IMG/VR virus record: IMGVR_UViG_3300036773_000146
Location: 1-64,000 of that record
DNA from: a virus
Strand: one strand, 5' to 3'
Length of the DNA stretch: 64,000 nucleotides
In this document: positions 29,577-53,762 of the stretch, one piece after another
Layout: each line of letters starts with the position of its first letter
Numbering within the stretch: the first letter of the stretch is position 1
Notes under the pieces: model-generated
Seen by the model: only the letters and a program-made list of their open reading frames with translations
Told to the model about the DNA's origin: nothing
Database searches by the model: none
Position numbers and translations under genes: made by a program

Positions 29577-29609
29577 CGCCACCCTACCCGTTCAGGTAGG
29601 GTGGCGCAA
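29577..29609 (-). promoter_or_regulatory. Promoter within an extended inverted repeat
   Basis: TTGCGC-N17-TAGGGT; arms CGCCACC/GGTGGCG. Confidence 0.8.
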
Positions 29610-29613
29610 GGGG

Positions 29614-30210
29614 TCAGACGTTCTGCTTCTCGCCTGCGGGCGCCGGGTCCGGCACCTTGGGGGACTCCTCCCGGCCGTCCCAACCGTCGTCGTGGCACTG
29701 CGGGCACCAGGGATAGAGCCGATTGTGCTGGTGCTCGATCGTCCAGGTGATCAGGATCCAGGCCCAGAAACCCAGCTCGACGACCTCGTAGACGATGAAG
29801 TTCTGCGTGGGCACGCTCAGGGTGAGCACGACCCATCCCACCCAGAACGCCGTCGGCCAGACGGTGATCCGGACTCCCCAGAGATACAGGGTCCGGTCGT
29901 AGATCCGATGCGTCCAGGTCAGCGCCCGGTGGTGCTCCTGAGCCTCCTGGGTGCCGTCCAGCGGCACCTCGTCGATGCAGCGCCAGCAGACGTCCGTCCG
30001 GTGCACGGCCGTGGCGAAGATCGCCGCGAAGAACAGCGCGATCACCAAGCTGCCCAAGGTCATCCGGGCGACCTCGCTGTGCTCCCGCAGCAGCCCGTAG
30101 CCGCTGTCGAGAATGACCGTGACGACGAACCACCAGACGGGGTGGTGGTGCAGCCAGCGGCCGCCCCGGCGGAACGGACCCTCGGGCTGGCCCTGTTCGG
30201 CGACGGGCAT
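29614..30210 (-). CDS. Membrane protein with CxxC motifs
   Basis: About 4 TM helices; CWRC and CPQC. Confidence 0.65.
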   Translation of the reverse strand: MPVAEQGQPEGPFRRGGRWLHHHPVWWFVVTVILDSGYGLLREHSEVARMTLGSLVIALFFAAIFATAVHRTDVCWRCIDEVPLDGTQEAQEHHRALTWTHRIYDRTLYLWGVRITVWPTAFWVGWVVLTLSVPTQNFIVYEVVELGFWAWILITWTIEHQHNRLYPWCPQCHDDGWDGREESPKVPDPAPAGEKQNV

Positions 30211-30644
30211 CAGTCGCTCACCTGCCAGACGGCCTCGACGCGGACCCGGAAACCGAACGACAAGCCGTCGTTGGTGCGCCCGTACAGCTCGACCTCGCGA
30301 TCGGTCGCCCCCTCAACCTCGAACACATCGAAGCCCTCGTAGCTCCCCAGCATCAGGTGATGGCCGATCTGCTTGGCGACCTCCTGCGGAAGGGGGATCC
30401 GGCGCGCGGCCATCTCCTCGGCCGACTTGACCTGCTCGACCTTGAAACCCGCCACGGCGAGGTTGCCGTAGCCGCCATGCCAGTTGCCCCAGTAGAAGCC
30501 CACGCCGTCTTCGGCGTCCGCGTCCGAGACGTAGTCGTCCACGATGAACTCCGCGCCCTTCGGCACGGCGATCGCAGGGTTACACAGATTCACGGTGTTC
30601 TCGATGACACGCGCCAGGGCGCCCTGTTTCATCGGTTCGATCAT
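30210..30644 (-). CDS. Hypothetical protein
   Basis: Coupled ORF. Confidence 0.65.
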   Translation of the reverse strand: MIEPMKQGALARVIENTVNLCNPAIAVPKGAEFIVDDYVSDADAEDGVGFYWGNWHGGYGNLAVAGFKVEQVKSAEEMAARRIPLPQEVAKQIGHHLMLGSYEGFDVFEVEGATDREVELYGRTNDGLSFGFRVRVEAVWQVSD

Positions 30645-30701
30645 GATCAGCCTTTCAACGAGGGAAGGGCGGGGCCGTCATCACGACGGCCCCGCCGGAG
30701 G

Positions 30702-31364
30702 TCACTTGCAGGCCTTGGTCTGGTGTGCGCCGTAGCTGGCCTGCGCCTTGGTGAAACCCTCACCGGCCGACGAGGAGAGCTGCTGCGTCAGGCCGGAGCA
30801 GGAGAACGACGTGTAGTCGAGGTACTGCTGAGCCGACTTCGCGGCCTGCGCGTTGTAGTCCACGGTGAGGCTGTCCACGGCCTGCGTGGCGACGTCCTTC
30901 GGGAACCCCTCGCCCGCCGTGGAGGACAGCTGGCGGATGAGCCCGGCCCGGGAGAAGGCGGTGTAGTTCAGGTACGACTGGGCCGAGCTGCGCGCCTGCT
31001 CCACCTGCGGCGGGTACTGGGGCGCCTCGGTCGTCGGTGCGGCCGCCGGGGTGACGGGCGCGGCCGGAGAGACGCTGTCGGCAGTGCCCGGGAGCTTGGC
31101 CCACTCGCACGTGTACGGGTCCCAGGCCACCGAGCTGCCGTCAGCGGGCGGCGTCGGCGTCCCCTTGGGTTCCGGGCAGACGGAGGTGAGCCCGGTGGAC
31201 GGGGCGGCTGCCGGGGTCGTGGCCGGAGTGCCGCCACCACCGGTGACGCCCACGACGATGCCGAGGACGATGAAGCCGCCGACGATCGCACCGGTGATCT
31301 TCAGAGCCCGGTGCTTCTTCTTGGGCGCGGGAGCCTGCGGCGACGGGGGATAAACGTTGGTCAT
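30702..31364 (-). CDS. Ltp-family superinfection-exclusion membrane protein
   Basis: N-terminal TM helix, Pro/Thr linker and two Ltp repeats (QA..SA..YL.YT.FS..GL..QLSS.AGEGF...A..A). Confidence 0.88.
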   Translation of the reverse strand: MTNVYPPSPQAPAPKKKHRALKITGAIVGGFIVLGIVVGVTGGGGTPATTPAAAPSTGLTSVCPEPKGTPTPPADGSSVAWDPYTCEWAKLPGTADSVSPAAPVTPAAAPTTEAPQYPPQVEQARSSAQSYLNYTAFSRAGLIRQLSSTAGEGFPKDVATQAVDSLTVDYNAQAAKSAQQYLDYTSFSCSGLTQQLSSSAGEGFTKAQASYGAHQTKACK

Positions 31365-31662
31365 GGATCTGCTGCTTTCTGTCGGTAGTGCAAGTGGATC
31401 AAAAAGTGAAAGTTATGAGCGCCACCAGGCGGTGACCAGGTGCCCGATCAGCCAGACCAGCACCACGGCGGCGAGGACGAAGCAGAGGAACACCCAGTCG
31501 TTCACCCGGGTCAGTCCTGCTCGACGGGCAGCAACGGCTCAGCTTCGACGTCGCGCAGGTTCTGGGCCAACATCCGGGCCGCGAGGTCTCCCCGGCCGGT
31601 GCCACCCCGGGAGAGATTGGTGATCTCCTGGTCGCTCTGCTCCAGGACGGTCGCGCGGCGCA

Positions 31663-32097
31663 TCAGTTCTCCTCGGGAAGGGTGTCGCGCTCGGGCAGCT
31701 GGTCGTTGCCCAGCTCACGGTCGCGCAGCTCGGCGCGCACCAGGACGAGCTTCTCGCGGTGGATCCGGCGGGTGGCCTTGTAGCAGGCGCGGTGGTCGAT
31801 CGCCTTGAGCAGCTCGCGCTCCAGGTTCTTCAGCGAGGCCGTGCTGGAGATCGCGAACCTCGTGATCAGCGCGGACCGGCGCTCGGACTCGTCGAGCCGG
31901 GCCCGGCCGTGCAACTCGGTCATGAGCAGGCTGTACTTGGCCTTGGGCTCGCGCAGGGTCATCGAGCTGCCGCCGCCGTGGCGGCGAATCACCTGGACGT
32001 TCGAGTCGAGCAGCAGGCCCAGCGTGCGCTCGGGCATGGTGGCGTACCGGGCCGCGTAGTCGGCGAGGTCGAGGATGAACGGCGGGTGGTGCAGCAT
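31663..32097 (-). CDS. Hypothetical protein
   Basis: Start motif at 32104. Confidence 0.7.
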   Translation of the reverse strand: MLHHPPFILDLADYAARYATMPERTLGLLLDSNVQVIRRHGGGSSMTLREPKAKYSLLMTELHGRARLDESERRSALITRFAISSTASLKNLERELLKAIDHRACYKATRRIHREKLVLVRAELRDRELGNDQLPERDTLPEEN

Positions 32098-32131
32098 GTC
32101 GGACCTCCGGTGCGGTCTGTTGAACTGACAA

Positions 32132-32165
32132 GACCGACCCTACCCGATCAGGTAGGGTCGGTCAA
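32132..32165 (-). promoter_or_regulatory. Promoter within an extended inverted repeat
   Basis: TTGACC-N17-TAGGGT; arms GACCGACC/GGTCGGTC. Confidence 0.85.
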
Positions 32166-32177
32166 GGGCCTTTCTGC

Positions 32178-32666
32178 TCAGCCCAGGTGCCAGGGGGCCC
32201 GGCCGGACACGACGGCCTGCTGCATCCGGTCGGCGTACTTGCGGCGCAGGGTCTCGGCGATCGGCCCCACGACGGCGCTGTGCTGGGAGAAAGTGTCCAC
32301 GTCCTTGTTGCCCGCCGGGTCGCTGCGGATCTCGATGCCGAAACAGGAGCTGCGCTTAGAGAGGTTGACGGCGCAGTGCATGACCCCGGCCGGGACGTAC
32401 ATCACCGCCTCCGGCCCGTGCAGGTACGGCACCCACTCCTCGCCCTCGCGGACCAGGGTGGCGCCGTAGCCGTCCAGCAGGCGCACGGCGATCGGGCTTT
32501 TCCAGTGCACGTGCGGGATGGAAATGCCGTCCGGCGGCATCCACACGTCGAGGATAGAAAACGGCGGGGTCTCCCCCGCCGTCTCCTCGGTCAAAATCGG
32601 CCGCAGCTTCTGTCCCTGCGGCCCGGTGATCTGGTCGATACTGTTGATCTCGATACGCACAGTCAT
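32178..32666 (-). CDS. Cupin-domain protein
   Basis: PHVH...YVPAGVMHCAVN cupin motifs. Confidence 0.8.
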   Translation of the reverse strand: MTVRIEINSIDQITGPQGQKLRPILTEETAGETPPFSILDVWMPPDGISIPHVHWKSPIAVRLLDGYGATLVREGEEWVPYLHGPEAVMYVPAGVMHCAVNLSKRSSCFGIEIRSDPAGNKDVDTFSQHSAVVGPIAETLRRKYADRMQQAVVSGRAPWHLG

Positions 32667-33545
32667 GCGGTTACTTTCTCACGCGACCGGACGATCAGGA
32701 CTCCGTTGTGCGCCTGGCCCGCTCACGGGAGATCGCGGCGTCGTAGTCGATGTTCATCTCGACCACGTCGTAGTTGGCCGTGTAGACCTCGCCGTCGCCC
32801 TTGTCGTAGTCCTGGAAGTCATCACGGACCTCGCCGTGATGATCAATCACCGGCAGGTGGCTGGGGATCTCGTCGCCCTCCAGGTAGACGACGGGCGGTG
32901 GGGTCCACCCGGCCTTCAACAGAGCCTTGCGCAAGATGGCCGCGCGCTGGGCGGTGGATCCACCAAGCACGCTGGCCATCTTGCCAACGACCTCGTCGAG
33001 GTCGGTCTTGCGAACGGGTCTGGGCACGTGGCCCTCCTTCAAATTCGGATCAGGCATTCGGTGGCGTAGCCGTGGCAGCCCACCAGCTGGATGGCCGTGC
33101 AGGAGGCCTCGATCCAGCTGGGTGCCTCGATCTGCACCCAGGCCCACTCGGCGACGAGCACGCCCTCCTGGAGCAGCTCGTGGGTGGTGATGCCCACGTC
33201 GAACTCGTAGACGGCCACGGTCAGAACGCCTTCTTGAGCAGCACGTAGAGAGCGACCGCGACGATCGCGCCGAGCACGTAGACGAGGGTCCAGTCGAAGT
33301 CGGTCATGATCAGACCACCTGCACCGGAGTGGCACTCCAGACGCGCCCTGCGCGGGTCAGTGCGAACTCGATCTGGACGTCGCGGAACTCGGGGTTCTCG
33401 ATGTCGTAGTTGATGCCCCCGTCGGACTGGGTCTGCAAGACCCGGCCGTCGGTGAGGAAGATCTTGAAGCGCGGGTTGCCGTTGACCGACAGCTTGAGCC
33501 GCTGAAGGGATTCGATACGACCCTGCGTGGTGTTCTGCATGATGA

Positions 33546-33905
33546 TCAGTCCTCCGGGTAGGCGGCGAGGATGCAGCCGTTGATGGCCTCGAAATGAAAG
33601 GCGTACTCGGCGGCTACGGCCTTGGCCGAGGCGGTCTGCGACCACTCGTAGGGCCAGTCGTAGACATCGCCCTCCCAGGCGATGGAGACGGCGCCCTGGG
33701 GCAGCTCTTCGTGCGTGTGGCCCGCCACGAAGAAATCGGTCACGTCGGCCCCGTAGTGCCGGGCCACGGCCAGCGCGACGGTGGCGGCCTTGGCCAGCTC
33801 CAGGCTGGTGCCCTCGCCGGTGCGCGGGCCCTGGCTGTACAGGCCCGTACCGCTGTCGCGCACGTAGGCGGTGTACTCGGGAAGGCTGATCTTGATTTCA
33901 TGCAT
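33546..33905 (-). CDS. Hypothetical protein
   Basis: Start motif at 33911. Confidence 0.7.
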   Translation of the reverse strand: MHEIKISLPEYTAYVRDSGTGLYSQGPRTGEGTSLELAKAATVALAVARHYGADVTDFFVAGHTHEELPQGAVSIAWEGDVYDWPYEWSQTASAKAVAAEYAFHFEAINGCILAAYPED

Positions 33906-33935
33906 GCGGACCTCCGGTGCGGCCTGAACGAACAA

Positions 33936-33969
33936 GACCCACCCTACCCGTTCAGGTAGAGTGGGTCAA
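33936..33969 (-). promoter_or_regulatory. Promoter within an extended inverted repeat
   Basis: TTGACC-N17-TAGGGT; arms GACCCACC/AGTGGGTC. Confidence 0.85.
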
Positions 33970-33981
33970 GGCCCTGCGCGG

Positions 33982-36900
33982 TCAGGGCGTGTACGGGATG
34001 GTCGCGTGCAGGATCACCGTGGTGTTGGCCTGGATCTCGGAGAGCAGGAAGTAGTTCCCGAACGAGCTGTCCTTCGTCCACGCGTCCGGCTGCCGGGTCG
34101 ACTGCCAGATACCCGCGTCCGAGCCGGGGTTCTGGGCCACCCACTCGGCCGGGTTGTTCGTCAGCTCGCTCAACGGCGCCATGGCCAGCAGCTTACCCAG
34201 GTAGTCGCGCATGATCGGCCAGTTGGTGCCCGGGTCCGGCACGTCGGCGAAGGTCCCCACGATGAGGATCAGCGGCGTCTTGATCGTGTCCGACGCGCCG
34301 ATGGCGGTCAGCTCGGCTTCGGCGTGGTCGCCCAGTGCGGTCATGATGGTCTCCCTGGTCGGGAGGGCTTCCCCGCCCTCACCTATTCGTGCCGTCGCGC
34401 GGGTCCGGCGGCATGGGCTCGGGTCCGAAGCGCTGCTCGGTCCGGCCATCCGCCCAGTCGTTGGCGGCGGACTTGTCGGCGCCGTGATCACGCGAACCCT
34501 GGTAGTACTCCTCGTGGTGGGCCAGCCACTGGGTGCGGGTGAGGTCGGAGTGCTTGTCCGAGGCGCCGCACGTCGGGCAGAGGCCGAGGGGCTCCTTCCA
34601 GATGATCGCCTGGGTGATGGGATCCACCACCTCCACGGCAGGGGCCAGCTGGCCGAGCACCTCGGCGGTGCGCAGGTGCAGGTAGGCGAGGTCGGTCCAC
34701 GGCCCTCCCGGAGTGCCCAGACCGCCGTTCTCCCGGCGGCGAATGTAGCTCTGGGCCGCCTTCACGTGGTCCTGGGCGTTCATGTCGGTCATGCTTCCTC
34801 CAGCGCTGCTTCGGCGCGGAGCGTGGGCTCCACGCTGTCGGGACATCGGTAGCCGAGCGCACGCAGCGCGGCCACCCGGTCGGCGGCCGCGCTCGCAGTA
34901 GGCTCCTCGAAGGTCTCGCCCGCGTGCGGCAGGTCGAGATCCTCGTGGTGGTAGGGCAGTGTGCTCACGAGCTGATAGCGCGCGATGCACCGCTCGACGA
35001 AGTCCACCGAGCCAGTCGGCACCAGTGGTGGCAGCGGTTCGTCGAAGACCATCCGGCGCGCGGCGACGGCGACCCTCCAGCCGCCGCTCGCGTCCTCCCA
35101 GACGTACAGATCGCACTGGAAGTCGTCGGTGCTCCACCTGCAATAACTCACCGCTCCTCCAGTGGCTCGGTCGGCGGCGTCGCGGGCTCGAAGGGCACTC
35201 CGGCGCCGCCGACTTCGGGATGCTGCCACCAGCGCTCGACCTTCATGCCGTCGCCTGGGTGGTTCCGCTCGGAAACCTCGTCGATCGCGTCGGCCCACAG
35301 GTTTTTCTGCTCAGTGGTCAGCTGCTTGGTGACGTAGTGCCACTTCACGTAAAGCCAGATGCTGGCCAGCAGCTCCTTGTACTCGTCAACCCGGGGCTTG
35401 AGCGCCTGGCCTCCGATGATCTCGCGAATCTCCTCGAAGGCCCGATGGTCGTTCGGATAGAACCCGATGCTGTCCAGCACCCCCTGGATCGCGTTGAGCT
35501 GCTGAGCCAGGAACGCCCCGTGCCGCGCGGCCTGCTTGAGCATGGCCTTCACGCCGTCGAGTTCGGCCTGCTGATGCCGGATGTGGGCGGCGTGCACCCG
35601 ACGGATCCGCTCCGACTGGGCCAGTTGTTCGCGCAGGTCGTCGATCTCGCTCACGAGACGTGGCCTTTCTCGTCGTAGGTGCGCTTGCCGTCCATGACGT
35701 CACGCAGCTCCCGGACGCCGCGCTCGGCCTTCCGGAACGCCTCCTCGACGGCGTGCCGGTGGTCGGGCCGCACGTTGCGCATGTCGCTGTCGGCCTCGGT
35801 CATGGTCAGGTACTGCAACGCCATCTCCACGAAGTAACCGGTGATCATCCGACCTTGCGGGTCGTGGATGTCGCCGAAGAAGTCGGCCAGCTCCTTGCGG
35901 GTCTCCGGCAACGTGGCGTCCTTCGCGCCCGGAGCGCCGGGGATGGCCAGTTGCAGGCTGATCCACCGGGACAGCAGGCTGTAGGGGCTGCCGGAATTGG
36001 CGAAGACTCCGGCGAGGCCGTTGTCCACCAGCCAGACGTGGGTCTCGCTGATCAGCTTGATCAGCTCCTCGCGATTGAGCATGAGGCGCACGTTCTCGGT
36101 CATGACTCCTCCACCAGAGTCTTGATGCGCTCCAGCGCGCGGATCGCGTCGGCGAGTTCCCGCTCGGCGCCGTCGGTGCGGGGATCATCGGCGTCCACGT
36201 CGAAGTAGAGGGCCAGGGCGGACCGCAGGGCGACCTTGCTGACACCCTGCTCCGGCAGCAGCAACACCCGCGACGACGGGTTCTTTATCGCCTCGTCCAG
36301 ACTGGCTAGCGTCTCGGCGGTGGGCGTCCAGTCCGCGTCGAGGCGCAGCGGCTGCGGTGCCGGGCCCGAGAGGATGAACTGCCCGACCGTGCCCTTGAGG
36401 TCCTCGACGAGGTTGCCGTGGGCCAGCTCGATGTCCTCGGTGGTGCCGTCGGCGTGCGTGACGTGCCAGACGCCCGTGAACTCGAACAGGTAGCTGTCGT
36501 CGGCGCTCATGAACCCTCCTCGGTGTAGTCGGCCAGCTCCTGCTGGCAGGCCCGGTGCAACGCGAGCGACGCGCGCAGCTGATTCCACGTGCTCAGGGAG
36601 AGTGCGGACAGCAGCGCCACCGCTACGAGCTGGACCGCCTGGATGGCGTGGCTGGTGGGTGGCGGCGCGAAGCCGATCAGGAAAACCAGCTCGGCGATGA
36701 AGATCAGGCCGACGATCACCGTGGACACGATCCGGGTCCGCAGGATCTTGCGTGCGGTGTAGGCCTTGAGCGACAGCAGCCGCAGTTCGAGCGGCGGATA
36801 GCCATTGTCGATGTTCATTCGTCACCCACCAGCCTCCGCAGCTCGGCCCACTTGACGCCCAGCTCGCGCCGGACCTCGGCCAGCACGGGCTCGACCAGTG

Positions 36901-38500
36901 CGAAGTCGACGCCCTGATCCACGGCGTCGTCGACCGCCATGTACAGCATGTCCATGTCCGTACTGATCTCGCGGATGAACCGCGCGGCACGCTGAGTGTC
37001 ACTGGTCAACGGGCTCTTGCTCATGAGATCACTCCTCGGGTTATGACCAGGGCCAAGGCCACCGCGACGACGCCGTGGCTCAGGCACAAGAACAGGGCGA
37101 GAGGTACGGCGGCCGGGATGGCCCGGCACCGCACTCCCCAGGTGGCGCTGACGAGCACGACGGCCACACACCAGATGGCCATGACCGCCAGCAAGACGTT
37201 CAGGTCGTCACCCCCTTGGTCGCGGCGATCGCGCAGACCGTGATGACGAAGCCGTTGATCACCAGCGAGATCACCAGCGAGATCACGGCGCCGGTGCCGG
37301 TGTATTTGACGACTTTCTTCTGCCCGGCCGAATACATGGCCGCGAGGATGTTCAAGCCGCAGAGGCCCGCGACAATCCACAGCAAGACGTTCATTCCCGA
37401 TCTCTTTTCCAGTCGATGACGATGGCCGCGACCAGCGCGACCAGGATGGCCAGGAGGATGAGCACGAAGGCCGAGCCGACGCCCCAGGCGACGGCCGGGC
37501 TCAACGCTTCGTCCAAGTGCGACGGGGTCGGGTCCATGCGTGCAGCGTGGCAGTGCCCTCGGCGGTGAGGCGCACGTAGTAGTGCGCAGCCACCGGGCCC
37601 GGTTCCAGCTCGGTCAGACCGGCCTCGCCCAGCTCGCGCATGGCGGCCGACGCGTGCTTGATCACGGGCTCGCCGAGACGGTCGGTCCAGCAGCCCTCCC
37701 AGTGGTGCCGGTTGCCCGCCGCCACCTGGTGCAGCTCGGCCTCGCGACGATCGGTGCGGGTGAAGGGCCGGGCCTCGGCCGGGGCGCTCATGAGCCGTTC
37801 CTGATCTCGTTGGCGAGGTCGCGCAGCTCGTCTCTCCGGTAGCTGGACACAGGCCAGTCCTCGTCTTCTTGAGCCAGCTCCGTCAGCACAGCAGCGACGG
37901 CCAGGGCCAGCTCGCGATCGAGAAATTGCCGGGTGCACAACAGGTGCGTTTGCGTGCAGCCGATCATGTCGTCGACTACCTCCGTGTGGGCGGCGCGCAC
38001 TAGCCGCTCCGGCAGGCTCATACCGCACCCCAGCGGTCGTGGTGGACGAGCCCGGACTGGGTTACGGTGACGTCGCCGGGGATCTCGCGCACGGACAGCA
38101 GACCGGCGCGCAGCAGGTCCGCCAGCGGCCGGGCGAGGTAGTGCCGGACCAGCGTGCCGGTGGCGTGCCGGAACTGGCCGTCGTAGTGCAGGGGCTCGGT
38201 CACGGCGGCGTGCAGCGCCGCATGCCGGGGCCGGGTGCCGTAGACGATCGGCGCGGGACTCTCCCAGTCGGCCATCGTGCGGCGGCCCTTGTCGGTGATG
38301 TGGGCGCGGAGCAGGCTCCCGGCCTCGGGTACCAGCTCGATCAGGCCGTCCTCCAGTATCTCGCGCAGGGCGCGGCTCTGGTGGCCGGTGACCACGTTGC
38401 TGTCGAGGTCGTACCACGAGGTCTCGAACTTGTCGCGCTCCTTGCGCTCGACGGCGCGGAGTTCGCTCAGTCTCAGGCGGGATGAGGGGATAACGCTCAC
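33982..38500 (-). other. Long operon of small hypothetical and membrane genes (incl. 33982-34344, 35148-35654, 35651-36103, 36507-36818, 38018-38500)
   Basis: Mostly coupled ATGA/GTGA overlaps; start motif at 38507. Confidence 0.6.
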
Positions 38501-38537
38501 GAGGTGCCTCCAGTGCGGCAGTGGGGCGGATGGTCGG

Positions 38538-38834
38538 TCAAGCGAGGCTGCGGCAGAGCTTCTGAATCCGCACGGCGGGGCGGGAGACGAACTGGTCGGT
38601 GACGTGCATCCCGCGTGGACGAGGCAGCACCCAGGCAACCGGGGTGCCGTCGTGGTAGACGAGATAGGAGACGCTACCGTCCATCGCCTCGGCGATCAGC
38701 CGGGAGAACTCCAGGCCGCCCAGCTGGCCCTGGACGAGGCTGTCGGCGCTCGGCTGCACCTCGGCGCGGATGGGACCGCTCCGGAACGCCCGGCGGTGCA
38801 GGATGTGCTCTTCGATCTCGCGGTAGGTGGCCAT
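38538..38834 (-). CDS. Hypothetical protein, paralog of 38841-39137
   Basis: Shared GQL...VSYLVY...TP.AW.L motif. Confidence 0.7.
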   Translation of the reverse strand: MATYREIEEHILHRRAFRSGPIRAEVQPSADSLVQGQLGGLEFSRLIAEAMDGSVSYLVYHDGTPVAWVLPRPRGMHVTDQFVSRPAVRIQKLCRSLA

Positions 38835-38840
38835 CGTCGG

Positions 38841-39137
38841 TCAAAGCCCGAGGCCGTAGCGGCAGGTGTGCTGGAGCTGCGACGTGGTCTGCGAGAAACG
38901 CTGCGCGGTCACGTGCGCCTGGCCGTCGAGGATCCACGCGATCGGCGTGTAGTAGCTGTAGACGAGGTAGGAGACGCGACCCTCGGCGACGGCCGTGCGC
39001 AGCGCGGCGTACTCCCCCTCGTTGAGCTGGCCCTGACCCACGCTGCCGGGATGCACCTCGGCGTGCGAGGACGCGGCCTCATAGGCCTCGCGGTTCTGGA
39101 TACGGACCTCGTATTGACTGCGCGTGAGTCGCGGCAT
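38841..39137 (-). CDS. Hypothetical protein (YSY.TPIAW motif family)
   Basis: Start motif at 39143. Confidence 0.7.
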   Translation of the reverse strand: MPRLTRSQYEVRIQNREAYEAASSHAEVHPGSVGQGQLNEGEYAALRTAVAEGRVSYLVYSYYTPIAWILDGQAHVTAQRFSQTTSQLQHTCRYGLGL

Positions 39138-39166
39138 GGCTGCCTCCTGTGCGGCTGATGTGGTAA

Positions 39167-40123: not shown

Positions 40124-40162
40124 GGGGGTGCTCCCTCCAGTGCGGGGTCTGTACGGTGGTTG

Positions 40163-43918: not shown

Positions 43919-44338
43919 TCATGAGTCCTCCTGGTCAGTAGTGGGCCAGCTGTGCTCGCCGGGTTCGGCCTGCGCCGCGCGGATCTGGGCCATCCGCCGC
44001 TTGGTGTCGGCCCAGGGCACGGTATGGCTCATCGGCCGGTGTTCAGGCTCGGCGTCCTCGGTCTCGGGTTCGTCCTCGGCAATCGCGGGGATCTGGGTGG
44101 TGATCTCGGCCAGCCGGTGCTTGCCCGGCACCGGGTCGAAGCTGCCGGTCACGAGCTTGGTGTATGCCCGCCGGTCGGCCTCGTCGGCGATCTCGTCGCG
44201 TAAGGCGTCGATGGCGTTCATGGTTTCGTCGTGGTGATCCCGGGCCCGCCGCACGTGCACCGTGTAGGCGCCGAACAGCAACACCAGGAGGACTGCGATC
44301 AGGATGAGGATGATGAGCAGGCTCATGGGGCCGCTCAC
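43919..44338 (-). CDS. Single-TM membrane protein
   Basis: Hydrophobic N-terminus. Confidence 0.65.
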   Translation of the reverse strand: MSGPMSLLIILILIAVLLVLLFGAYTVHVRRARDHHDETMNAIDALRDEIADEADRRAYTKLVTGSFDPVPGKHRLAEITTQIPAIAEDEPETEDAEPEHRPMSHTVPWADTKRRMAQIRAAQAEPGEHSWPTTDQEDS

Positions 44339-44411
44339 CGCCTTTCACGGTGTGGGTGGGGACGTGGGGCCCGCAGAGGCGTTCAGAGCCTCTGCGGGCA
44401 TCTGAGAGGCT

Positions 44412-45827
44412 TTACAGCAGGGGAAGCTCGTCCCGCCCGGCTCGCTGAAGGATCAGCAGCGGCGTCAGCTCGGGGAACTGCGCGGGGGTCACGAAGGTGA
44501 TGATCTCGACCACGCGCCACCACGAGGACTCCTCCAGCGGCGGCGTGAAGTGCATCATGCTGCCCCGCTGCGGCTGCTCGGCCAGCGTCACGGGTTCCAC
44601 CTCCTGGGCGCCCACTTGCAGCTGAACGCGGTAGGTGCGCCCGGTCTTCGCCGCCACCTCGCCCTTCAACTGCTCGGCCAGCTCCTCGCGGGGCTCGGGG
44701 GTGTCGAACAGGGTCGGGTCCTCCTCGACCACCGGGCCCTGCGGCGTGGTGAACTCCGCCAGGTTGGTCAGAACCCGCGCACCGCCCAGGCCCGTCTCCT
44801 GCTCACGGGTCGGCACGAGACGCGGCTCGTCGTGGATGCGTTCGCTGGCGAAGTCCTGCACCACCGGCTTCGCGGCCTTCTCGGGCACGGCGGTCCACGT
44901 GGTGGCGGGCTCGACCGGGTCCCAGGTCAGCTGCGCGGGGGTCACGAACCGCTCCGGCACGTTGAAGGTCTCAGCGAGGGACTCCGGCTTGACGTAGTCC
45001 AGCGAGTCACGCTCCCACGCCTGCTGGTCTGCGCGCAGGTGCGCAGTGCTGTTGGACTTGCGGCTCTGGTTGTTGAAGTACTGAAGAGCCCGGGTGAACG
45101 ACTCGTAGGTGAGGGCCTCGGTGGGCGGCTCAGGCGGGGTCACGACCTTCGTGGAGTCGGCGAGTTCCTGCTCCAGGATCTTCCGGCGCTGGCGCACGGC
45201 GTCGATAGCATCCTGGCTCGCCACCCAGCTCAGCTCCGCCTTCTGGGCGGCCTGGTACATCCACACGTCGTCGCGGGTGATGCCGATCAACGCCACGATC
45301 TGGGTGAGGCGCGGGTACCCGCTGATTTCGGGGATCGTGGTGTAGATCAGGCCCGCCAGCCCGTCGATCCTTGTCTCGGCCTGGTGCCAGATCTTCTTCG
45401 GCAGCATGCCGAGCAGCTGGTGCTCCACGGAGGTGTACGGCGGGTTCTGCTTGACGGCGTAGGCCGGGGTCTGGTGCCGCTTCTCCAGCCGCTCCTTCAT
45501 CTCGGCCATGGCCTCACTACCAGAGAGGCGCTGCTCCTGCTGGGCCTTGGAGCTGGCCGTCTGGGCATCGAGCAGGGTCGTGGCGCGCTTGAGCACCGGT
45601 GCGTCCTCACCGTGGTAGGCGGCCACCAGGCCGAGCAGCGCGCTGTTCAGGGTGATGCCCGGCAGGTGGTACTTCGGCTCGATGTCCTTGAGTGCCGACA
45701 CCGGCCCGCGCCGGTTCACCTGGTCCTGCCAGTCCTGGGGCAGGACGGTGATGACCTCCTGCTGGGCCAGGGTGAAGGGCCACTGCTGGTCACCGCCGGG
45801 CGTGGGGTGGTTCGTTTCGTGGTTCAT
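44412..45827 (-). CDS. Large hypothetical protein
   Basis: 471 aa ORF with its own AT-rich upstream region and a downstream hairpin near 44370-44400. Confidence 0.7.
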   Translation of the reverse strand: MNHETNHPTPGGDQQWPFTLAQQEVITVLPQDWQDQVNRRGPVSALKDIEPKYHLPGITLNSALLGLVAAYHGEDAPVLKRATTLLDAQTASSKAQQEQRLSGSEAMAEMKERLEKRHQTPAYAVKQNPPYTSVEHQLLGMLPKKIWHQAETRIDGLAGLIYTTIPEISGYPRLTQIVALIGITRDDVWMYQAAQKAELSWVASQDAIDAVRQRRKILEQELADSTKVVTPPEPPTEALTYESFTRALQYFNNQSRKSNSTAHLRADQQAWERDSLDYVKPESLAETFNVPERFVTPAQLTWDPVEPATTWTAVPEKAAKPVVQDFASERIHDEPRLVPTREQETGLGGARVLTNLAEFTTPQGPVVEEDPTLFDTPEPREELAEQLKGEVAAKTGRTYRVQLQVGAQEVEPVTLAEQPQRGSMMHFTPPLEESSWWRVVEIITFVTPAQFPELTPLLILQRAGRDELPLL

Positions 45828-45902
45828 GCGCCGCTCCAATGGAGTCTTATCCGGTGAGAAAAGCAGAACAAATGCGTGGTATTTAGTGGTGAATATATAT
45901 GA

Positions 45903-48900
45903 TCATTCCTGGGCATTGGTGGCGTGCAGGTGCGCGGTATCCTCCTCGGTGAGGGGCTGCCACTTGCCGCCGTTGCGGATCCGGCCCTCCCACGTCCAGG
46001 TGGCACCGTCCAGGATCAGCACGGGTGGCTGACTGATCCGCGCCCGGCGCACGTCGTGGGTGACGACGAGGACCAGGTCTCCCCGCCGGGTGAGCACCCC
46101 GGCCTCCCGCAGGCCTTCCACCCGGGTCTGCTGGGCTCGGGGCACCGGTTGCAGGGCGCGGGCGTGTGGGTAGGCGAGGACCTGGTGGTCCCGCAGCCGG
46201 TCCAGGGCGTCGGCCTTGTCGCGGGCCAGGACGTAGAAGCGGCCCTTGTACCGGCCGGTTCCGCCCAGGGCCGCCGTGACGGCGTCCGGCAGGGTGGCCG
46301 CCGTGTCGAAGTTGGTGAAGACGGTGAGGGCCATCTGGGGCCGCCCTTCTCGTGGTGGGGTCATGCCGCCCGGCGGGCCTTGTGCGCGCAGTGGCGGCAC
46401 AGGGGTAGGCTGCGGATGTCTCGGGCCGGTCCCCGCCGGGTGCGCGGCGGGTAGATTTTGCCGATGGCCTTCTGGGTGTAGACCTCGATGGGCTTGCGCA
46501 GGCCTTCGGTGCACAGGGCCGACCCGATGCCGTCGCCGTTGACGGCGCGAGCGAGGTGCCGCTTGGTTTGCAGCAGGTTGGCCGTGTCGATCACTCGTCA
46601 CGCTCGATCTCGTCGGCGATGGAGTGGATCCACGTCCACATGGCTCCGGCGCCCTGGGAGTTCGCAAGGACGCGCAAGGCGGCGGTGGCCGCAGCCTCAG
46701 CCTCTCCGAGATGGGCCCGGTGGTGCTCGTCGATGGCGTTCCGTGTCGCGCGGACCACCCGCTTGGACAGGTCGCTCACCACGACCCCTCCTCGTGCACA
46801 TCGCCATTGTCGTGCTGTGTCACGAAGTGCGTGGTGGCCATCACCATCGCGGCCGTCCAGGCGTCGGCCCACACAGCTGTCGTGACGCGGTTCGGGGCAC
46901 CGGCGGAATGCTGGCACGCCCACACCCAACAGCCCGCGATCTTGAACACGCGCGGCCGGGGCCACGTCGTCAGGTTCTCCGGCACGGCGGCTTCATCCGG
47001 CAGCTCGCTCATGACTCGGCATCCAGGATGATGCGCGCACGCGCCACGTTTTCGTGGGCCGTGTAGCGGCGATCTTCCAGCACGTCGCGGATCGCGAGCA
47101 GCAGCTGGTCCCAATGTGCGAGAGCGGCGGACAGGTCGTCGATCCGTGCCAGCAGCCCGGCTACCGGGCCCAGCCGCACGGCGTCGGCGGGTAGCTCGGA
47201 CAGGTACGCCGATGCGCTGCGCCCGACGCGGTAGTAGCCACGTACTGGACCGGATTCAAGAACTCCGTGCTTCGGGCTCCACCACAGCTCGGGCGCCTCA
47301 TCGCTCATCGGTGAACTCCTTCGAGGACTTCGGCGAGTTCGTCGATCTCTTCCTGGTGCCACCACTTGTCGGGGCGCTCAGCCATCTCCCGCAGCGCTGC
47401 TGCGATCCCCTTCCCCGTCGAGCAATCGGCGCCCAGGTTCGTCGCGTTGTTGCCCATCGCGTCATCGGTCGCCTTGACCATGCGCTCGGCCCAGGACTTG
47501 AACAGGTCGCTCATCGGGCGGACTCCTCATCCTCCTCGTCGACCAGGCTCACCATCTCCGTGCTCGGCTTACGCTCGACGGCGGCTGTCGCCAGCTTCGG
47601 CGGGTCGGCGGTCGGGTTCGCTTCGAGCCACATCCGAGCACGCTCTGAGATCGGCGTGCCCTCGCGGGGTTCCGCAGAGGCGGCCGGACCCAGGTAGTCA
47701 TCGCTCTCCAGACAGCCGCTTAAGCATCGGCAGCATCCGCCGCACGGCCCTTGGTAGTCGGCCATTCCGCCGCATGTCCCGAGCTTGCAAGCACCGATCG
47801 CGCACGACTTCGCAGGGGCGGCAGCGGGGCGGGCGAGGATGGCGCGGATACGGCTCAGGAAGCGCGGCCCGTAGCTGGTGCTGGTGTCGACCTGGAATCG
47901 AGCCCGGGTGGCCGCGTCTTCGGCGAGCACCTTGTTGATCTCGTCGAGCCTCGCCCGGGCCTCGTCACGCTCGGCGCGGACGTTCGCCGCCGCCTCAACG
48001 AGGCCGTGCCACGGATCGGCTATCGAGAGACCGAGTGCGCCGAAGACGCGGCCGTACAGTTCCGTGCTCGCGATCTGCTCCTCCCGGAGCTTCGTCTCTG
48101 CGGCATCGTCGCGGGCAGGCTCGGTGGGCTCGTCGCTCATGATCACCATTCCCTGTTGGTCGGTACGGACGGGGTTGTCGTGGTCGTGCCGGGCGGGTTG
48201 GGCACGGCCGCCGTGAGCGGACCCAGGCCCATGACCAGTTGCTGCGTGGTCCTGGTCTGGTGCCAGGAGTTCACGCAGTGCCAGAGGCCGTCGACCAGCT
48301 CCCAGCCGAGGCGGTGCCGGTCACGGGCGTAGGTGAGCCCCTCGGGGATCTCTTCGATCGTGCTGAAGGTCTTGAACGTCCAGGAAGCGTTCATGACCTT
48401 CTTCGCGTGGTGCACGGTCGCGTCCACCAGCCGCTGCACCTCGCCGTAGTCGTAGCAGCGGGGGAAACCCGCCGCGTCGTGCTCGCACGGCAGGCTGTTG
48501 ACGATGCCCGTGCAGCGGGGCTTGTGCGGATGCCGCACTCTCTCACTCGACGTGGTCATCAGACCCCTTCTGGTAAACGGTCCCCTCGTGGCCGGTGCCG
48601 ATGAGGTACCGGCCCAGGTAGGCGCGCTGCTCCTCGGGGAGCCCGGCCGCCGAGTCGCAGAGCATCTCGGCGGTCAGGCGGGCCGAGGTGATGACTCGCT
48701 CCCGGTCGTCGGCCTGGGCCTGGTCGGTCATGGAGCGCAACAACGTGTCAAGGTGCCCCACACCGATCTGCCGGGCGAGCACGATGCTGTGGTCGAAGAG
48801 CCTGCCCAGGGACGCGGGATACTCGGTCAGCGCCGCGAGGTGGTACTGCTCGGACTCGGCGTGCAGAGCCAGCAGCTCGGCATAGAGGCCCATCTCAACC

Positions 48901-49538
48901 CTCCTCGGGGATGAAGACGATCTCGCGGGACTTCGCGTCGTACTCGAAGTAGCCGATGGTCGCCCAGCCGCTGCCGGTGAACGTGACCACCCGCGAGTGA
49001 CTGTGGCTCCGGTGCACGATGACCTCGCCAGGCGTGGCCAAAAAGCCAGCGTCGCGCAGCCGCTGCGCGTCGTTGTGGAGGTGGGCCAGCACGCTCAGGT
49101 GGCGTGGGCTGTCCACGAAGGCGATCCCGACTCGCTCGGCCAGCTCGACGGCCTGCACTGCGGTGTGGGCGACGAGGTACCAGTTGCCCTGCTCACCGTG
49201 GCGCGTGGCCCCCACCAGCGCCTCGGTGCCGCGCGGGAGGTAGCTCTGACGGTGGTCCTTGTGCACGTAGACCTTAAGCTGCGACATGATCAGTTCTCCT
49301 CGGTGGTGAGCCCGGCGGCGTGCAGGAAGGCAGTCACGCGGTACTCGGCCTCGGCCTGCGCCTCGGCGACGGTGGGGTAGACGGTGTGCGGGTAACGCTT
49401 ACCCGGCAGGGTGGTCTCGACGTCGAAGCGCTCGCTGCCGACAGCCTGCACGTAAGCCACCGGCACGGTGCCAAGCAGACCGACATCGCGAGGGGTGCCA
49501 CCGGAGGTGCGCCCGCTGGTCCAGGTGAGCTGCAACAT
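45903..49538 (-). other. Operon of small hypothetical genes (incl. 45903-46334, 46361-46594, 47511-48149, 48143-48559, 48543-48893, 48895-49287, 49290-49538)
   Basis: Coupled ORFs after the promoter at 49573-49605. Confidence 0.6.
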
Positions 49539-49572
49539 GATCTTGACCTCCGGTGCGGTCTGGAACTGATAA

Positions 49573-49605
49573 CACCACCCTACCCGATCAGGTAGGGTGG
49601 TGCAA
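49573..49605 (-). promoter_or_regulatory. Promoter within an extended inverted repeat
   Basis: TTGCAC-N17-TAGGGT; arms CACCACC/GGTGGTG. Confidence 0.85.
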
Positions 49606-50588
49606 GGGGTCAGGCCTGGTCGGCGAACTTCTGCGCAGCAACCTTGGCGTCGTGCATCGTGCGCGCCGAGTCGTAGGAGATCAGGTTGCGGGTCGGCAGG
49701 GTCCAGATGCGCAGGTCCCACAGGTCGTTCGCGATCTTGTCGATCGCGAAGCTGTGCGTGTCAGTGCGGGCGTAGTAGGTACCGGACCAGGCCTGGCGGG
49801 TATATGTGAGCTTCACGATCATCCTCCGGTGCGGACGGGGGCGACCGGATGGCCGCCCCAGTTGGATCAGTCGCAGAGCCTAGAGACGAGTTCCAGCCGA
49901 GCCGGGTCCGCGCCCAGCACCCGGCCGTCGCGGTTCCAGCGGACCGGAATTTCGTCCGGCTGGACGCTAATCTCGCTCCACTTGAGCGCAGGGTCCAGCT
50001 GGACGACTACGCCCACCTCATCGAGATCGGTGTGCCGGACCGTCATGCCCTCGGCAAACTCGATCATTTCGACCTCTCCTCGGTAGCGGGGTGTAGCTCG
50101 ACGTGGGCGTCCGAGGTCTTGATCCCCGGCGGCTGGCCTGGTTACCAGCCGCCCGTCTCTCCCTGTCAGTTCTCGCGGATGTCGCTCAGGTCATCCCAGG
50201 CGAGCCACCCTGCCTCGCCGTCTTCCCACCGGGCCAGCACCACAAACCGGCGCTCTTCCAGGATCTCGACGATCTGGTCGTTGTCGAACGTGGCAATCTT
50301 GGTCATGATCGGTTTCCTTCCCGGTCGGACCGGGGGCGACCGGGTGGCCGCCCCCGCTGGGGCTCAGGCGCAGTTCCACCACAGGCGGTCGCCCAGCTCG
50401 GTGAGCAGGTCCACCAGCACCGTCCGGCGGTCCGACTGATCCAGGCCGATCAACTCGCCGTAGGCGATCTTCTGCTCGTACCCCGCGATGTGCTCGCGGA
50501 GTTCGGCGATGTTGGCCGCGTTGGCGGCGAGCGGGTGGCGGGTGGTGTTCGACATCTTGACCTCCGGTGCGATCCTCAACCTGACAAA

Positions 50589-50621
50589 ACCCATACTACC
50601 CGTTCGAGTAGTATGGGTCAA
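50589..50621 (-). promoter_or_regulatory. Promoter within an extended inverted repeat
   Basis: TTGACC-N17-TAGTAT; arms ACCCATA/TATGGGT. Confidence 0.85.
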
Positions 50622-51848
50622 GGGTCCGCTACGGCCGTATGTAAGGCACCTCGGCTTCAGCGTCGAACCAGCGCGGGGAGTGGCCGCCGTCGGCGTGCTG
50701 CACGCCGACAATCACCTACCTCGCACCGTTCGCCGGGTTGAATCCTCCGGATATGGCATCCGTGCGGACGGTGATCTGCACCAGGCCGCTCTCGTCGCGG
50801 TACTCGTCGCCCGCGCGCAAGTCCTGCGCCAGCATGGTCAGCTCTCCTTCACGGTGTCGAAGGCCCGCTGGGCATCGAAGGCCAGGACGAGGCCGGAGAG
50901 CACCTGGAGACGCTCGATCTTGCGCCACAGGCCCTCCAGGGTCTTCTGGGCGTGCTCGATGCTCCTGTCGATGTTCTGGGGCTGGAAACCGGCCACCTGG
51001 ACGTTCGCCCGGCGCCACACGGTGCCCTCTGAGGGGTAGTGGCGCGTCGTGGTGCCGTCGCGGAAGGCCAGCACCAGCTCCAGGGAGCGGGTGGCGGTGT
51101 CGGGCGCGATGCCGATCACCAGGGCCCAGCCGTTGGTCCCGGAGGCAAACCAGACGTTGTCGCCCAGCTTCAGCTCGGCGGTAGGAACCATGCTGGCGTC
51201 GCTCATGGCGGTCAAACCTCCAGGCCGGTGATGTGCTCGGCCAACCGGACCTGGGCGGCCTTGACGCCGTCATCGAAGGCCTCGTTGTACTGCGCGCTGT
51301 AACGCTGCTGCGGGGCGATGTCGTAAACCGCGCTCACGGCCTGCTTGTACTCGGCCAGCTCGGCCAACACGGCACGCAGATCGTGGGTGGTAAGCCAGAC
51401 GCCGGGGGTGGCGCGAGAGACGACGCCCTGGTGGTTGGGCTCCGGCCACTCAGCCAGGAACTGCTCGATGTTCTCGGCGGCCGCCTGGCCGGGAGAGTGC
51501 GACATGATCTTGTCCTTCCAGGACGGGGGCCGGGCCCCGTGTGGAGCCCGGCGGGTGAGTCAGCCTTCGATCATCTTCAGGGCGGCGGCCTCGCACTTGG
51601 CGCACACCTTGCGCTGGCGGAGAAGCTTGGCGTAGGCCAGCGCCTCGGCCGGGGTCTCGAAGGTCGGGCCCTTGGCGAAGCGGGTCAGGCCCCGGGAGAG
51701 CGCCGAGCAGGCGGTCATCGCGTAGTCCAGGCCGTCGGCCGAGTCCTGCGAGGTGATGTCGAGGCCCTCGATGTGGTTGCTGGTCCGGTTGTAGCGGATG
51801 GTGAACGACATCGGGGCCTCCAGTGCGGCTCGTCTTGCTGACAGATTC

Positions 51849-51877
51849 ATACTACCCGTTCAGGTAGCAGAGCGCAA
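51849..51877 (-). promoter_or_regulatory. Palindrome-containing promoter
   Basis: TTGCGC-N17-TAGTAT. Confidence 0.75.
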
Positions 51878-51884
51878 GGGCCAA

Positions 51885-52184
51885 TCAGCTGCGCTGTCCC
51901 GAGCCGTTGCACTGGAAGCAATACTTCCGGCCGTGGCGGTAGTAGCGGCTGGCCCCGTCAAACTCTCCGGTGCCGAGGCACTTGCCGCATGCCCGCTCCT
52001 CCAGGGCCTCAACCTCCAGGCGGAGGTTGTCGACCAAGGCCTGGTACTGCGCAACCTGGGCGGCCAGGGTGTCGAACTCCTTGGCGGTGCACCGAGCCTG
52101 GAAGAACTCGGCGTCGAAGACGGCGTGCTTCTCGGCGTCGGCGAGCTGGTGGCGGGCAGTGGCGAGGGTGGCAACGAAGGTCAT
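51885..52184 (-). CDS. Coiled-coil plus CxxCxGxG Zn-finger protein, probably leaderless
   Basis: CGKCLGTG...CFQCNGSG; the ATG lies 6 nt after the -10 box. Confidence 0.7.
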   Translation of the reverse strand: MTFVATLATARHQLADAEKHAVFDAEFFQARCTAKEFDTLAAQVAQYQALVDNLRLEVEALEERACGKCLGTGEFDGASRYYRHGRKYCFQCNGSGQRS

Positions 52185-52190
52185 ACCCTG

Positions 52191-52219
52191 AGACTACCCG
52201 ATTGGGTAGGGTGGCGCAA
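52191..52219 (-). promoter_or_regulatory. Palindrome-containing promoter (leaderless transcript)
   Basis: TTGCGC-N17-TAGTCT-N6-ATG. Confidence 0.8.
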
Positions 52220-53128
52220 GAGTCAGCCGCAGGGATGCACCGACAGATACGTGTAGGTCACACTGCCGATCTCGATCCCTTCGTCCAGTTCGCGCCAGGT
52301 GGCCTCCTGGCCCCATTCCTGGGGCTCTCGCAGGCTCAGAACGCACTGCTGCTGGCGATCATTGCCCGGGAACCAGAAGGGCACCACAGAGCCGTTCAGC
52401 TCGCGCAGGAGCGCGTTCAGCCGGTGCGACTCTACGTTGCTCAGGTACAGGCGGATGTCAGCCAGCGACTGCGGGTTGCCCAGGGCCGGTGTGATGAACT
52501 GGTAGGCGGCCATGAGGCGCTCGGTCAGCTCGTCATACAGGTCCAGCGGGTCGACATTGAACTGGTACCGCCCTGCCGCTGCGTCCCAGTCGCCGTAGGT
52601 CTCGTTTGCCATCGTCAAGCCCTCCCGATCGCCCATGGCTCGGGCAAGAAGCCGCCCTTGCTCAGCCAGTCGTCCAGGCCTTCGACCAGGTCGACCAGCG
52701 CCTCGGCCAGGGAGTCGTCCGGCTCCTGCTGCAATGCCTCGACCAGCTCGCGGATCTGGGCGAGGGCTACGTTCGGGTCCATGCGGACCTCCTTCATGAT
52801 CGGGAATGGAGCCGGGTGACCCCTCCACCGGAGAGGCCGCCCGGAGTGTGGTGGCAGATCAGCGGTGACCCATGGCCAGCAGGTCGGCGCCCCGAAAGTC
52901 CTCGTACAGGGCCCAGCCGTTGCCCTCATCCACGAAGACCTCCACGATCTCGGTGGTGGGCAGCGCGGCCTGCGCCTGGACGTAGTCGTAGGCGGCCGAC
53001 TGGCTGCGCTGGCGGACGCGGTCCCCCTTGTTGACGACGACGGCCCACTTCTTCCACGCGCTCATGACGATCTCCAATGCGATCAGGACGGAAGGCCCGG
53101 GGGCGGTGGTGCCCCGGGCCGGGGGTAA

Positions 53129-53692
53129 TCAGGCGGGGGTCTGGTCGGCGAGCTGGCGCACGCCGTTGCGCACGGTGCTGTAGTCGCCGCGCCAGTAGGA
53201 CGAGCGCTCGGGCAGAGTCTCCCGCTGATCGCGGACGGTCTCGTCCATGCTCGCCTCACGGCGGACCTCGGCCTCCAGGCGTGCCTCGAACTCCGGCGAC
53301 AGCGCGCGGTTCTCGTGGATGTAGCCCGCGCCCATGTGGACCAGCTCGACCTCGTCGCAGCAGGGCGCGAACTCGGGGCCGGTCTCGCAGAACTTGTCGC
53401 CACCGTGGGTCTCGGCGGTCTGGACGCCGTGCTTCTCGCACCACCACTGGTTCGAGCTGTAGGAGCAGTCACTCAGGCCCTCGAAGCGCGCCGAGCCGAA
53501 CGCGTGGGTGATCTTCTTGACCTGGTCCTCGGTGGGGCCGTCGGTCCAGTTGACCGCGACCGAGCTGCCACCCGCGTACCGGTCGATGCGGACCGAGAAG
53601 AACCGCGCGGGCAGCTGCGGGAAGGCCAGCTTCAACTGACGGCGCATGAGCTTCGCGACCTCGGCGGTGTCGATGTGGCGGGCGTTCGACAT
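53129..53692 (-). CDS. LPD29-like domain protein
   Basis: EVAKLMRRQLKLAFP...FSVR...YAGGSSV.V.WTDGPT...V..I; start motif at 53698. Confidence 0.75.
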   Translation of the reverse strand: MSNARHIDTAEVAKLMRRQLKLAFPQLPARFFSVRIDRYAGGSSVAVNWTDGPTEDQVKKITHAFGSARFEGLSDCSYSSNQWWCEKHGVQTAETHGGDKFCETGPEFAPCCDEVELVHMGAGYIHENRALSPEFEARLEAEVRREASMDETVRDQRETLPERSSYWRGDYSTVRNGVRQLADQTPA

Positions 53693-53728
53693 GGTGTCCT
53701 CCGGTGCGGGGTGATCCCTGACTGACAA

Positions 53729-53762
53729 GACCCACACTACCCGTTCGAGTAGTGTGGGTCAA
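53729..53762 (-). promoter_or_regulatory. Promoter within an extended inverted repeat
   Basis: TTGACC-N17-TAGTGT; arms GACCCACA/TGTGGGTC. Confidence 0.85.

Follow-up and report, generated by a model that had tools for sequence, protein, structure and literature searches.

Why should a phage promoter contain a long inverted repeat whose sequence varies from copy to copy while its two arms remain complementary? This question is raised by a phage genome recovered from a soil metagenome (G000, the 149,735-bp contig IMGVR_UViG_3300036773_000146), in which a promoter-like cassette built around a 16-bp palindromic core is repeated along an arm of small genes. At eight sites in positions 1–64,000 of this contig, the stretch that was analysed and that is called the window below, the core palindrome extends 7–8 bp further on each side. 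These palindromes are real and well above chance, and their pairing is conserved. We give roughly even chances to the reading that the palindrome is an RNA hairpin embedded in the promoter, which would terminate, attenuate or 3′-cap read-through transcripts, making the unit a composite promoter/terminator cassette similar to the promoter-early stem-loops (PeSLs) of T4-type phages.

A repeated promoter cassette with a palindromic core

The cassette lies on the minus strand and comprises a TTGAC-type −35 box, a 17-bp spacer, the 16-bp palindromic core, a TAnnnT −10 box, a conserved Shine-Dalgarno (SD) leader and a start codon. The core itself is made of five conserved, six variable and again five conserved bases, and its last three bases together with the next three form the −10 box at a spacing of 17 bp from the −35 box. 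The leader ends in GGAGG about 20–35 nt further on and is followed by the start codon, with SD leader and ATG found 35–60 nt past the core. By these features each site is a host SigA-type promoter, and promoter activity is predicted for it on that ground. With at most one mismatch allowed, 25 copies of the core are present in the window, whereas 0.7 would be expected. The whole genome holds 28 copies, nearly all in one orientation, and all but one are located at 11.7–73 kb, a region of roughly 100 small open reading frames (ORFs), mostly of unknown function. The part of this region that falls in the window is the following:

11708..63955, minus strand: small-gene arm with about 22–25 promoter cassettes (−35, 16-bp core, −10, SD leader), of which only eight have long stems

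Eight cores extend into long inverted repeats

An earlier reading of the window, referred to here as the original prediction, had listed eight inverted repeats of 30–32 bp. All eight were recovered in place and with the arms it had given, the single mismatch at 33936–33967 being a T-G pair on the transcribed (minus) strand. It had also placed the repeats between the inside of the −35 box and a point just before +1, which is correct: the arms begin at the G of the −35 hexamer and end near −3. The energies below are those of the predicted RNA hairpins unless DNA is specified.

29577..29606, minus strand: extended palindrome with a 7-bp arm extension; −28.2 kcal/mol, z −5.6
32132..32163, minus strand: extended palindrome with an 8-bp extension; −28.6 kcal/mol, z −6.9; as a DNA hairpin −16.9 (sense) versus −15.7 kcal/mol
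32095..32165, minus strand, promoter reading of the preceding site: −35 at 32160–32165, −10 at 32137–32142, likely start near 32129, SD leader at 32104–32115, ATG at 32095–32097
33936..33967, minus strand: extended palindrome in which one pair is not Watson-Crick (U-G in the sense transcript); −26.2 kcal/mol
39167..39198, minus strand: extended palindrome with the second arm position altered on both sides relative to the other sites; −27.2 kcal/mol, z −6.8
43408..43439, minus strand: extended palindrome with arms identical to those of 32132–32163 and another centre and leader; −27.9 kcal/mol
49573..49602, minus strand: extended palindrome with a 7-bp extension, the eighth pair being G-U in the sense RNA; −26.7 kcal/mol
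50589..50618, minus strand: extended palindrome with a 7-bp extension, in which a −10 variant is mirrored in the spacer; −21.9 kcal/mol
53729..53760, minus strand: extended palindrome whose arms are of the type most frequent in the relatives; −26.3 kcal/mol

In random sequence of the same composition, seven or more of eight flanking positions would pair with a probability of about 8e-4 per site. About 0.02 such sites are therefore expected among 25, and eight were observed.

Pairing is kept while the arm sequences vary

A motif scan of viral contigs retrieved three relatives carrying the same cassette, G001 (155 kb, complete), G002 (49 kb, close to G001) and G003 (40 kb), which were all examined over their whole length. 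The 81 cores of G000 and these relatives that are followed by an SD leader were aligned without gaps. The number of pairs among the eight flanking positions is bimodal: all eight pair in 15 cassettes and seven in 7 cassettes, none has six pairs, and the remaining 59 have five or fewer. About a third of the cassettes thus carry the extended palindrome, with 11 arm types in total. A tally of these types shows that seven of the eight arm positions occur with two or three different Watson-Crick pairs; the remaining position is the A-T pair to which the final T of the −10 box belongs. The original prediction had suggested a covariation analysis across homologous sites, and its proposal that structure counts, not only sequence, is supported to the extent that pairing is kept in all four genomes: the percentage of paired positions, the number of cells changed on both sides and the covariation score are each above all 500 column-preserving shuffles, the observed score being reached in 0 of the 500. 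Sliding the partner by 1–3 columns leaves about half of the pairing. The end of the palindrome is sharp, at position 7–8, and position 9 is paired in just 6 of 59 cassettes of an earlier subset.

The variable arm positions correspond to −10 positions 4–5, the spacer, the 3′ part of the −35 box and the discriminator. These positions matter little to a SigA promoter, so that promoter function does not explain the symmetry. Being largely free in this respect, the arms can drift in sequence while the pairing stays.

Comparison of orthologous sites, assigned by the protein encoded downstream and by alignment of the flanks, gives individual examples. Between G001 87146 and G002 25771 two adjacent pairs are swapped on both arms and the helix is kept. 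The palindrome at G001 114878 is perfect, and its G002 orthologue at 47731 has three changes, all of which give G-U or U-G pairs in the sense strand. Likewise, G001 97419 is perfect, and a one-base insertion in the G002 orthologue at 33556 leaves a 13-bp stem with a bulge. The site at 29577–29606 in the window and that at G001 90962 precede homologous genes; both are palindromic, and three pairs differ between them on both sides. The flanks upstream of the cassette are unrelated in five of six extended orthologue pairs versus 4 of 14 others (p 0.04).

The sense transcript forms the more stable hairpin and has a T-richer tail

When folded as RNA, the eight sites of the window are predicted to form stems of 13–14 bp with loops of 4–6 nt (−21.9 to −28.6 kcal/mol, z −4.2 to −6.9). 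They place a stem-loop between or over the −35 and −10 boxes, and many other cassettes hold just the 5–6 bp stem of the core. In the hairpin class, 19 of 24 cassettes fold more stably as sense RNA than as antisense RNA (mean difference −1.8 kcal/mol, p 3e-4 by Wilcoxon test). In the other 59, where the hairpin is limited to the core, neither strand is favoured (21 versus 22). The imperfections within the core are of the G-T type 13 times and of the A-C type twice in the hairpin class. On the sense side, the nine bases past the stem contain 3.6 T on average, versus 1.7 at the same positions in the other cassettes (p 3e-6); in G000 alone the values are 3.9 and 1.25 (p 2e-4). This enrichment is confined to the sense side.

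Separate hairpins are found at other cassettes

Several non-extended cassettes are preceded by a strong stand-alone hairpin whose 3′ arm or U-tail overlaps the −35 box. Two examples in the window are:

11735..11785, minus strand: stand-alone terminator-like hairpin with a 15-bp stem and a U-rich tail (six T in eight bases); −29.7 kcal/mol, z −6.6; the 3′ arm and the tail reach into the −35 and spacer of a non-extended cassette (core 11724–11739)
15505..15565, minus strand: stand-alone terminator-like hairpin abutting or overlapping the −35 of a non-extended cassette (core 15490–15505); −36.2 kcal/mol, z −4.3

Hairpins of −24 kcal/mol or stronger occur within 130 nt upstream of 12 of 59 non-extended cassettes, about 10 of the 12 being independent, versus 0 of 22 extended ones (Fisher p 0.016). 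Where the upstream ORF of an extended cassette could be called, its stop codon precedes the core by 14–39 nt, too little to fit a separate terminator between them, except in one case where the distance is 120 nt; the upstream stop is not callable for about 40% of the cassettes.

The original prediction had offered several readings of the structure, one of them an RNA processing stem in read-through transcripts. The part of this option that concerns read-through RNA fits our observations best: the sense strand is the more stable one (19/24), the T-rich tail is on the sense side, and the extended palindrome stands where other cassettes have a separate terminator hairpin. The processing part was not retained. 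A stem of 13–14 bp is short for an RNase III-type site, and we rejected such a site as the principal explanation for this reason.

Homology breaks are concentrated in the cassettes

A search for recombination junctions at these sites had also been proposed, and breaks in homology were indeed found there. When G002 was compared with G001 by BLAST, 18 of 71 block ends fell inside cassettes, which cover 4.9% of the sequence (p 8e-9). The blocks tend to start 8–13 nt before the core or to end 56–68 nt after it. In G001, identical cassettes at 89248 and 89720 stand on either side of a 130-aa ORF; the G002 homologue of this ORF is located 17 kb away behind a different cassette, with homology beginning within the leader. 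Judging from these alignments, the repeated cassettes act as joints for gene exchange among relatives. Contigs from four soil runs, compared with the window, include relatives with ORF-sized skips that end at cassette edges (29613 to 30210; 39204 to 39311). These skips are only a weak hint at cassette joints, because their short sides lie in the repeat itself. Loose contig ends at 32136 and 32168 were rejected as junctions, as they are cross-matches to other cassettes.

A hairpin within the promoter and the alternatives to it

The reading to which we give even chances can be formulated as follows. A host SigA-type promoter, with the core lying over its −10 box and an SD leader behind it, would start each unit. 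Read-through from the upstream gene would transcribe the whole 30–32 nt palindrome, which would then fold into a GC-rich hairpin of 13–14 bp followed by a U-enriched tail. This hairpin could terminate or attenuate the read-through, or cap the 3′ end of the upstream mRNA, and each unit would be insulated without a separate terminator. Arm sequences would drift with pairing kept, since the arm positions are largely free for promoter function, and the repeated cassettes would double as joints for gene exchange between relatives.

Several observations weigh against this proposal. The tail is a weak U-tract, typically two U, a G, a U and then mixed bases. A T-containing start-region motif also follows cassettes of a shifted register that lack the hairpin (see below), and the tail may therefore be a promoter feature. 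The −10 half of the palindrome is under tighter constraint than its spacer half, which partly confounds the wobble asymmetry. Two thirds of the cassettes lack a long stem, and a separate hairpin is missing from many of these as well; moreover, the best upstream hairpin energy does not differ significantly between extended and other cassettes overall (p 0.28), the very strong class alone being different. A generic sigma-70/terminator scan, which is not tuned to actinobacteria, flagged one of the eight sites (33936–33967) as terminator-like. The p-values given above overstate independence because the cassette copies are paralogues and orthologues related by descent. Finally, the strict conservation of the core requires a further explanation, namely a binder.

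The sharpest challenge to selection on an RNA hairpin comes from a neutral process, which we regard as unlikely though not negligible. The core palindrome could nucleate intrastrand template switching during replication (quasi-palindrome correction), copying one flank onto the other, and the long palindromes would then be mutational by-products that are tolerated where the TTG of the −35 box and the start region are spared. Such conversion events would fit the all-or-none distribution of pairing and the changes affecting several bases at once, such as the two adjacent pairs swapped together in G002 25771. At G001 88402 (L182:8386-8433) a 7-bp extension that is absent from G002 27028 has been made by a 4-nt block difference, which seems to have removed the −10 box used in G002; this looks like a single event of the template-switch type. 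Some orthologues are also palindromic in one genome only: G001 136388 is extended and its G000 orthologue at window position 15490 is not. However, neutral symmetrisation does not predict the sense-strand bias of the imperfections, the T-richer tail or the absence of separate strong hairpins at the extended sites, and the helices persist at orthologous sites of genomes whose proteins are just 40–60% identical. The two processes are compatible, and template-switch correction may supply the double changes on which selection for a hairpin terminator acts, or may be enough as a neutral cause on its own.

The palindrome could instead act at the level of DNA, as a cruciform or a one-strand hairpin extruded on supercoiled DNA. 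Such a structure would hide the −35 and −10 boxes, forming a supercoiling switch, or would recruit a structure-specific protein that promotes recombination of the cassettes. An idea of this kind was raised by the authors of the PeSL studies for T4-type phages (Arbiol et al. 2010, PMC2839356; Comeau et al. 2014, PMC4122927). We consider it improbable here. The arms of 13–14 bp, with centres of 4–6 nt, are perfect, DNA hairpins of −13 to −17 kcal/mol are predicted, and the cassettes are recombination joints; but the centres are not AT-rich, and the arms are near the lower limit for cruciform extrusion. The asymmetry favours one strand, and orthologous sites retain variants that have a bulge or three G-T pairs, the latter being A-C on the complementary strand. 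Homologous exchange would be expected to place the joints at various points of the cassette, as is observed, and a search of the complete genome for tyrosine and serine recombinases found none. In a bolder version, which seems to us about as improbable, a structure-specific phage protein would couple promoter use to supercoiling and also carry out the exchange of cassettes; a lytic actinophage would then possess an integron-like system whose gene cassettes bring their own promoters. We attach the least credence to the arms being outer half-sites of longer symmetric operators for a dimeric or tetrameric regulator, with the arm types marking sub-regulons of paralogous regulators. The core is conserved on both halves and in two registers, which makes a symmetric binder likely for the core, and the arm types cluster into a few common forms. 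Nevertheless, a large number of specificities would be needed to read eleven arm types that vary at seven of eight positions, displacement of the outer half-site by a one-base insertion is tolerated, and no helix-turn-helix regulator was found among the proteins conserved between G000 and G001.

If the palindrome is indeed an RNA hairpin within the promoter, a single 32-bp sequence would serve for initiation as DNA, probably for regulation as an operator, and for termination or mRNA capping as RNA, and would be a testable case of such overlap. The cassettes would also account for the reshuffling of the accessory-gene arm in these phages. For annotation, a palindrome within a promoter should not automatically be taken for a repressor site.

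The core as a probable binding site

The 16-bp core itself is probably the site of a symmetric, operator-like binder, because both of its halves are conserved in sequence and because it occurs in two registers relative to the −10 box. The second register is found in the window at one site:

55492..55507, minus strand: core in the other register, directly preceded by the −35 and closely followed by the −10

Other cassettes of this register are present at G001 85676, 86385, 92046, 93864 and 94358, where the −10 box lies 1–2 nt past the core. In the second register the −10 is often a tandem repeat of the last bases of the core. The occurrence of this register indicates that the core is conserved independently of its use as a −10 box. 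Promoter-like core sites lacking the usual SD leader within 60 nt are found at window positions 52194–52209, 16619–16634 and 12203–12218, and may correspond to leaderless or long-leader transcripts, or to non-coding RNAs.

Our search for the putative core binder gave no HTH_3 match. A sigma region 4 match at 78981–79064 is weak and below the cut-off, and nine to ten conserved small proteins have no informative Pfam or PHROG match. Two genes located directly behind the first cassettes of the small-gene arm, both conserved in G001, encode a WhiB-like protein (window 63640–63846, minus strand) and an Lsr2-like protein with dimerisation and DNA-binding domains (G000 64857–65447, minus strand, L001:857-1447). 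They were discarded as candidates, since proteins of these types are not expected to read such a palindrome.

The phage and its relatives

The G000 contig is classed as complete, with direct terminal repeats, in IMG/VR. It has 67% G+C and carries nearly all of its genes on the minus strand. Its structural proteins (major head protein, tail sheath, baseplate wedge) are those of a contractile-tailed phage, its largest protein is a tail protein, and a DnaE-type polymerase is encoded. No close relative was found in the phage collection by near and protein searches; the best matches are capsid proteins 57–59% identical, from Cluster C mycobacteriophages, Rhodococcus phage E3 and Gordonia phage Stormageddon. 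From these sequence comparisons G000 is a myophage of high-GC Gram-positive bacteria (actinobacteria) and a distant kin of Cluster C mycobacteriophages. It is probably lytic, because no tyrosine or serine recombinase (Phage_integrase or Resolvase domain) was detected in the complete genome.

Few ORFs of the small-gene arm have homologues in G001. Within this arm, a 673-aa protein with a right-handed beta-helix (NosD-like) is encoded at window positions 26553–28574 (minus strand). Elsewhere in the window, a 1044-aa protein (2516–5650, minus strand) contains an internal LAGLIDADG domain (residues ~760–811), a sign that this large gene may hold an intein or a homing-endonuclease insertion.

Beyond the relatives, a scan of metagenomes for the core motif returned almost exclusively chance singletons. 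The same 5+6+5 core palindrome is present four times, at 1295, 1983, 5757 and 5773, in L157, an unrelated metagenome contig of about 50% G+C that has no detectable protein in common with G000; this may reflect a common type of operator or a coincidence. Gordonia phage Stormageddon (L192, record 86000-135999) was also considered as a carrier of cassettes and was rejected: the organisation is absent, and its small genes are packed with overlapping stops and starts. A different palindrome, of 5+2+5 bases, occurs in nine copies in this phage.

Comparison with known systems

Two further options of the original prediction concerned hairpin promoters of the N4 type and integron attC sites. N4 promoters have stems of 5–7 bp with a 3-nt loop and no −35/−10 hexamers, and are read by a giant virion polymerase. 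The G000 cassettes resemble them in having an inverted repeat at an early promoter, for which a DNA hairpin is conceivable. In contrast, they possess canonical −35 and −10 hexamers with 17-bp spacing, the largest G000 protein is a tail protein, and no match to a T7-type polymerase was obtained, in a search whose control was uninformative; we therefore did not retain this option. The attC option fared no better. Both attC sites and our cassettes are imperfect palindromes of variable sequence at gene-cassette boundaries. However, the G000 cassettes carry their own promoters, the complete genome yielded no recombinase, and the joints vary in position, with block ends at about −12 or about +60 from the core and no single crossover point.

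The nearest feature described in an actinophage is the set of 17-bp dyad repeats of Cluster O mycobacteriophages (Cresawn et al. 2015, PMC4351075). These are also conserved palindromes present in tens of copies, mostly between or at the starts of small genes. They differ from the G000 palindromes by their invariant 7-bp arms, with no reported covarying extension, by their location outside predicted SigA promoters and by their genome-wide spread.

The closest parallel is found in the PeSLs, repeated cassettes in the hyperplastic regions of the T4-type phages RB49/phi1, PST and nt-1, which consist of a sigma-70 early promoter, a stem-loop mostly located between −35 and −10 or over −10, and an SD sequence (PMC2839356, PMC4122927). 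One PeSL stem-loop cut the expression of a reporter as much as a strong terminator, and recombination between PeSL cassettes accounts for indels and modular shuffling and yields mini-circles (PMC2839356, PMC4122927). At the sequence level, the G000 cassettes have the features of PeSLs except one. Each type of cassette is intergenic and is repeated along the hyperplastic region of small genes in a large lytic myovirus. Each combines a host sigma-70-type early promoter with a stem-loop between or over the −35 and −10 boxes, or just upstream, followed by an SD sequence and a start codon. In both, stem sequences vary with pairing kept, G-T pairs included, and relatives differ by whole genes with breakpoints in the cassettes. 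The feature lacking in G000 is the AT-rich upstream element of PeSLs, the flanks upstream of the −35 box being G+C-rich. The two systems also differ in their evidence, as the G000 cassettes are known from sequence, whereas PeSL termination and mini-circles are known from experiment. The host of G000 belongs to the high-GC actinobacteria, and this phage also conserves the leader stretch ahead of the SD sequence. In addition, the inner 5–6 bp of every G000 stem form one strictly conserved palindrome, which is also present in stemless cassettes and in two registers, and this points to an added operator function. Our analysis would thus extend the composite promoter/terminator cassette from T4-type phages of Gram-negative hosts to deep-branching myophages of high-GC actinobacteria, the new element here being that the stem extends on both sides of a conserved operator-like palindrome lying over the −10 box.

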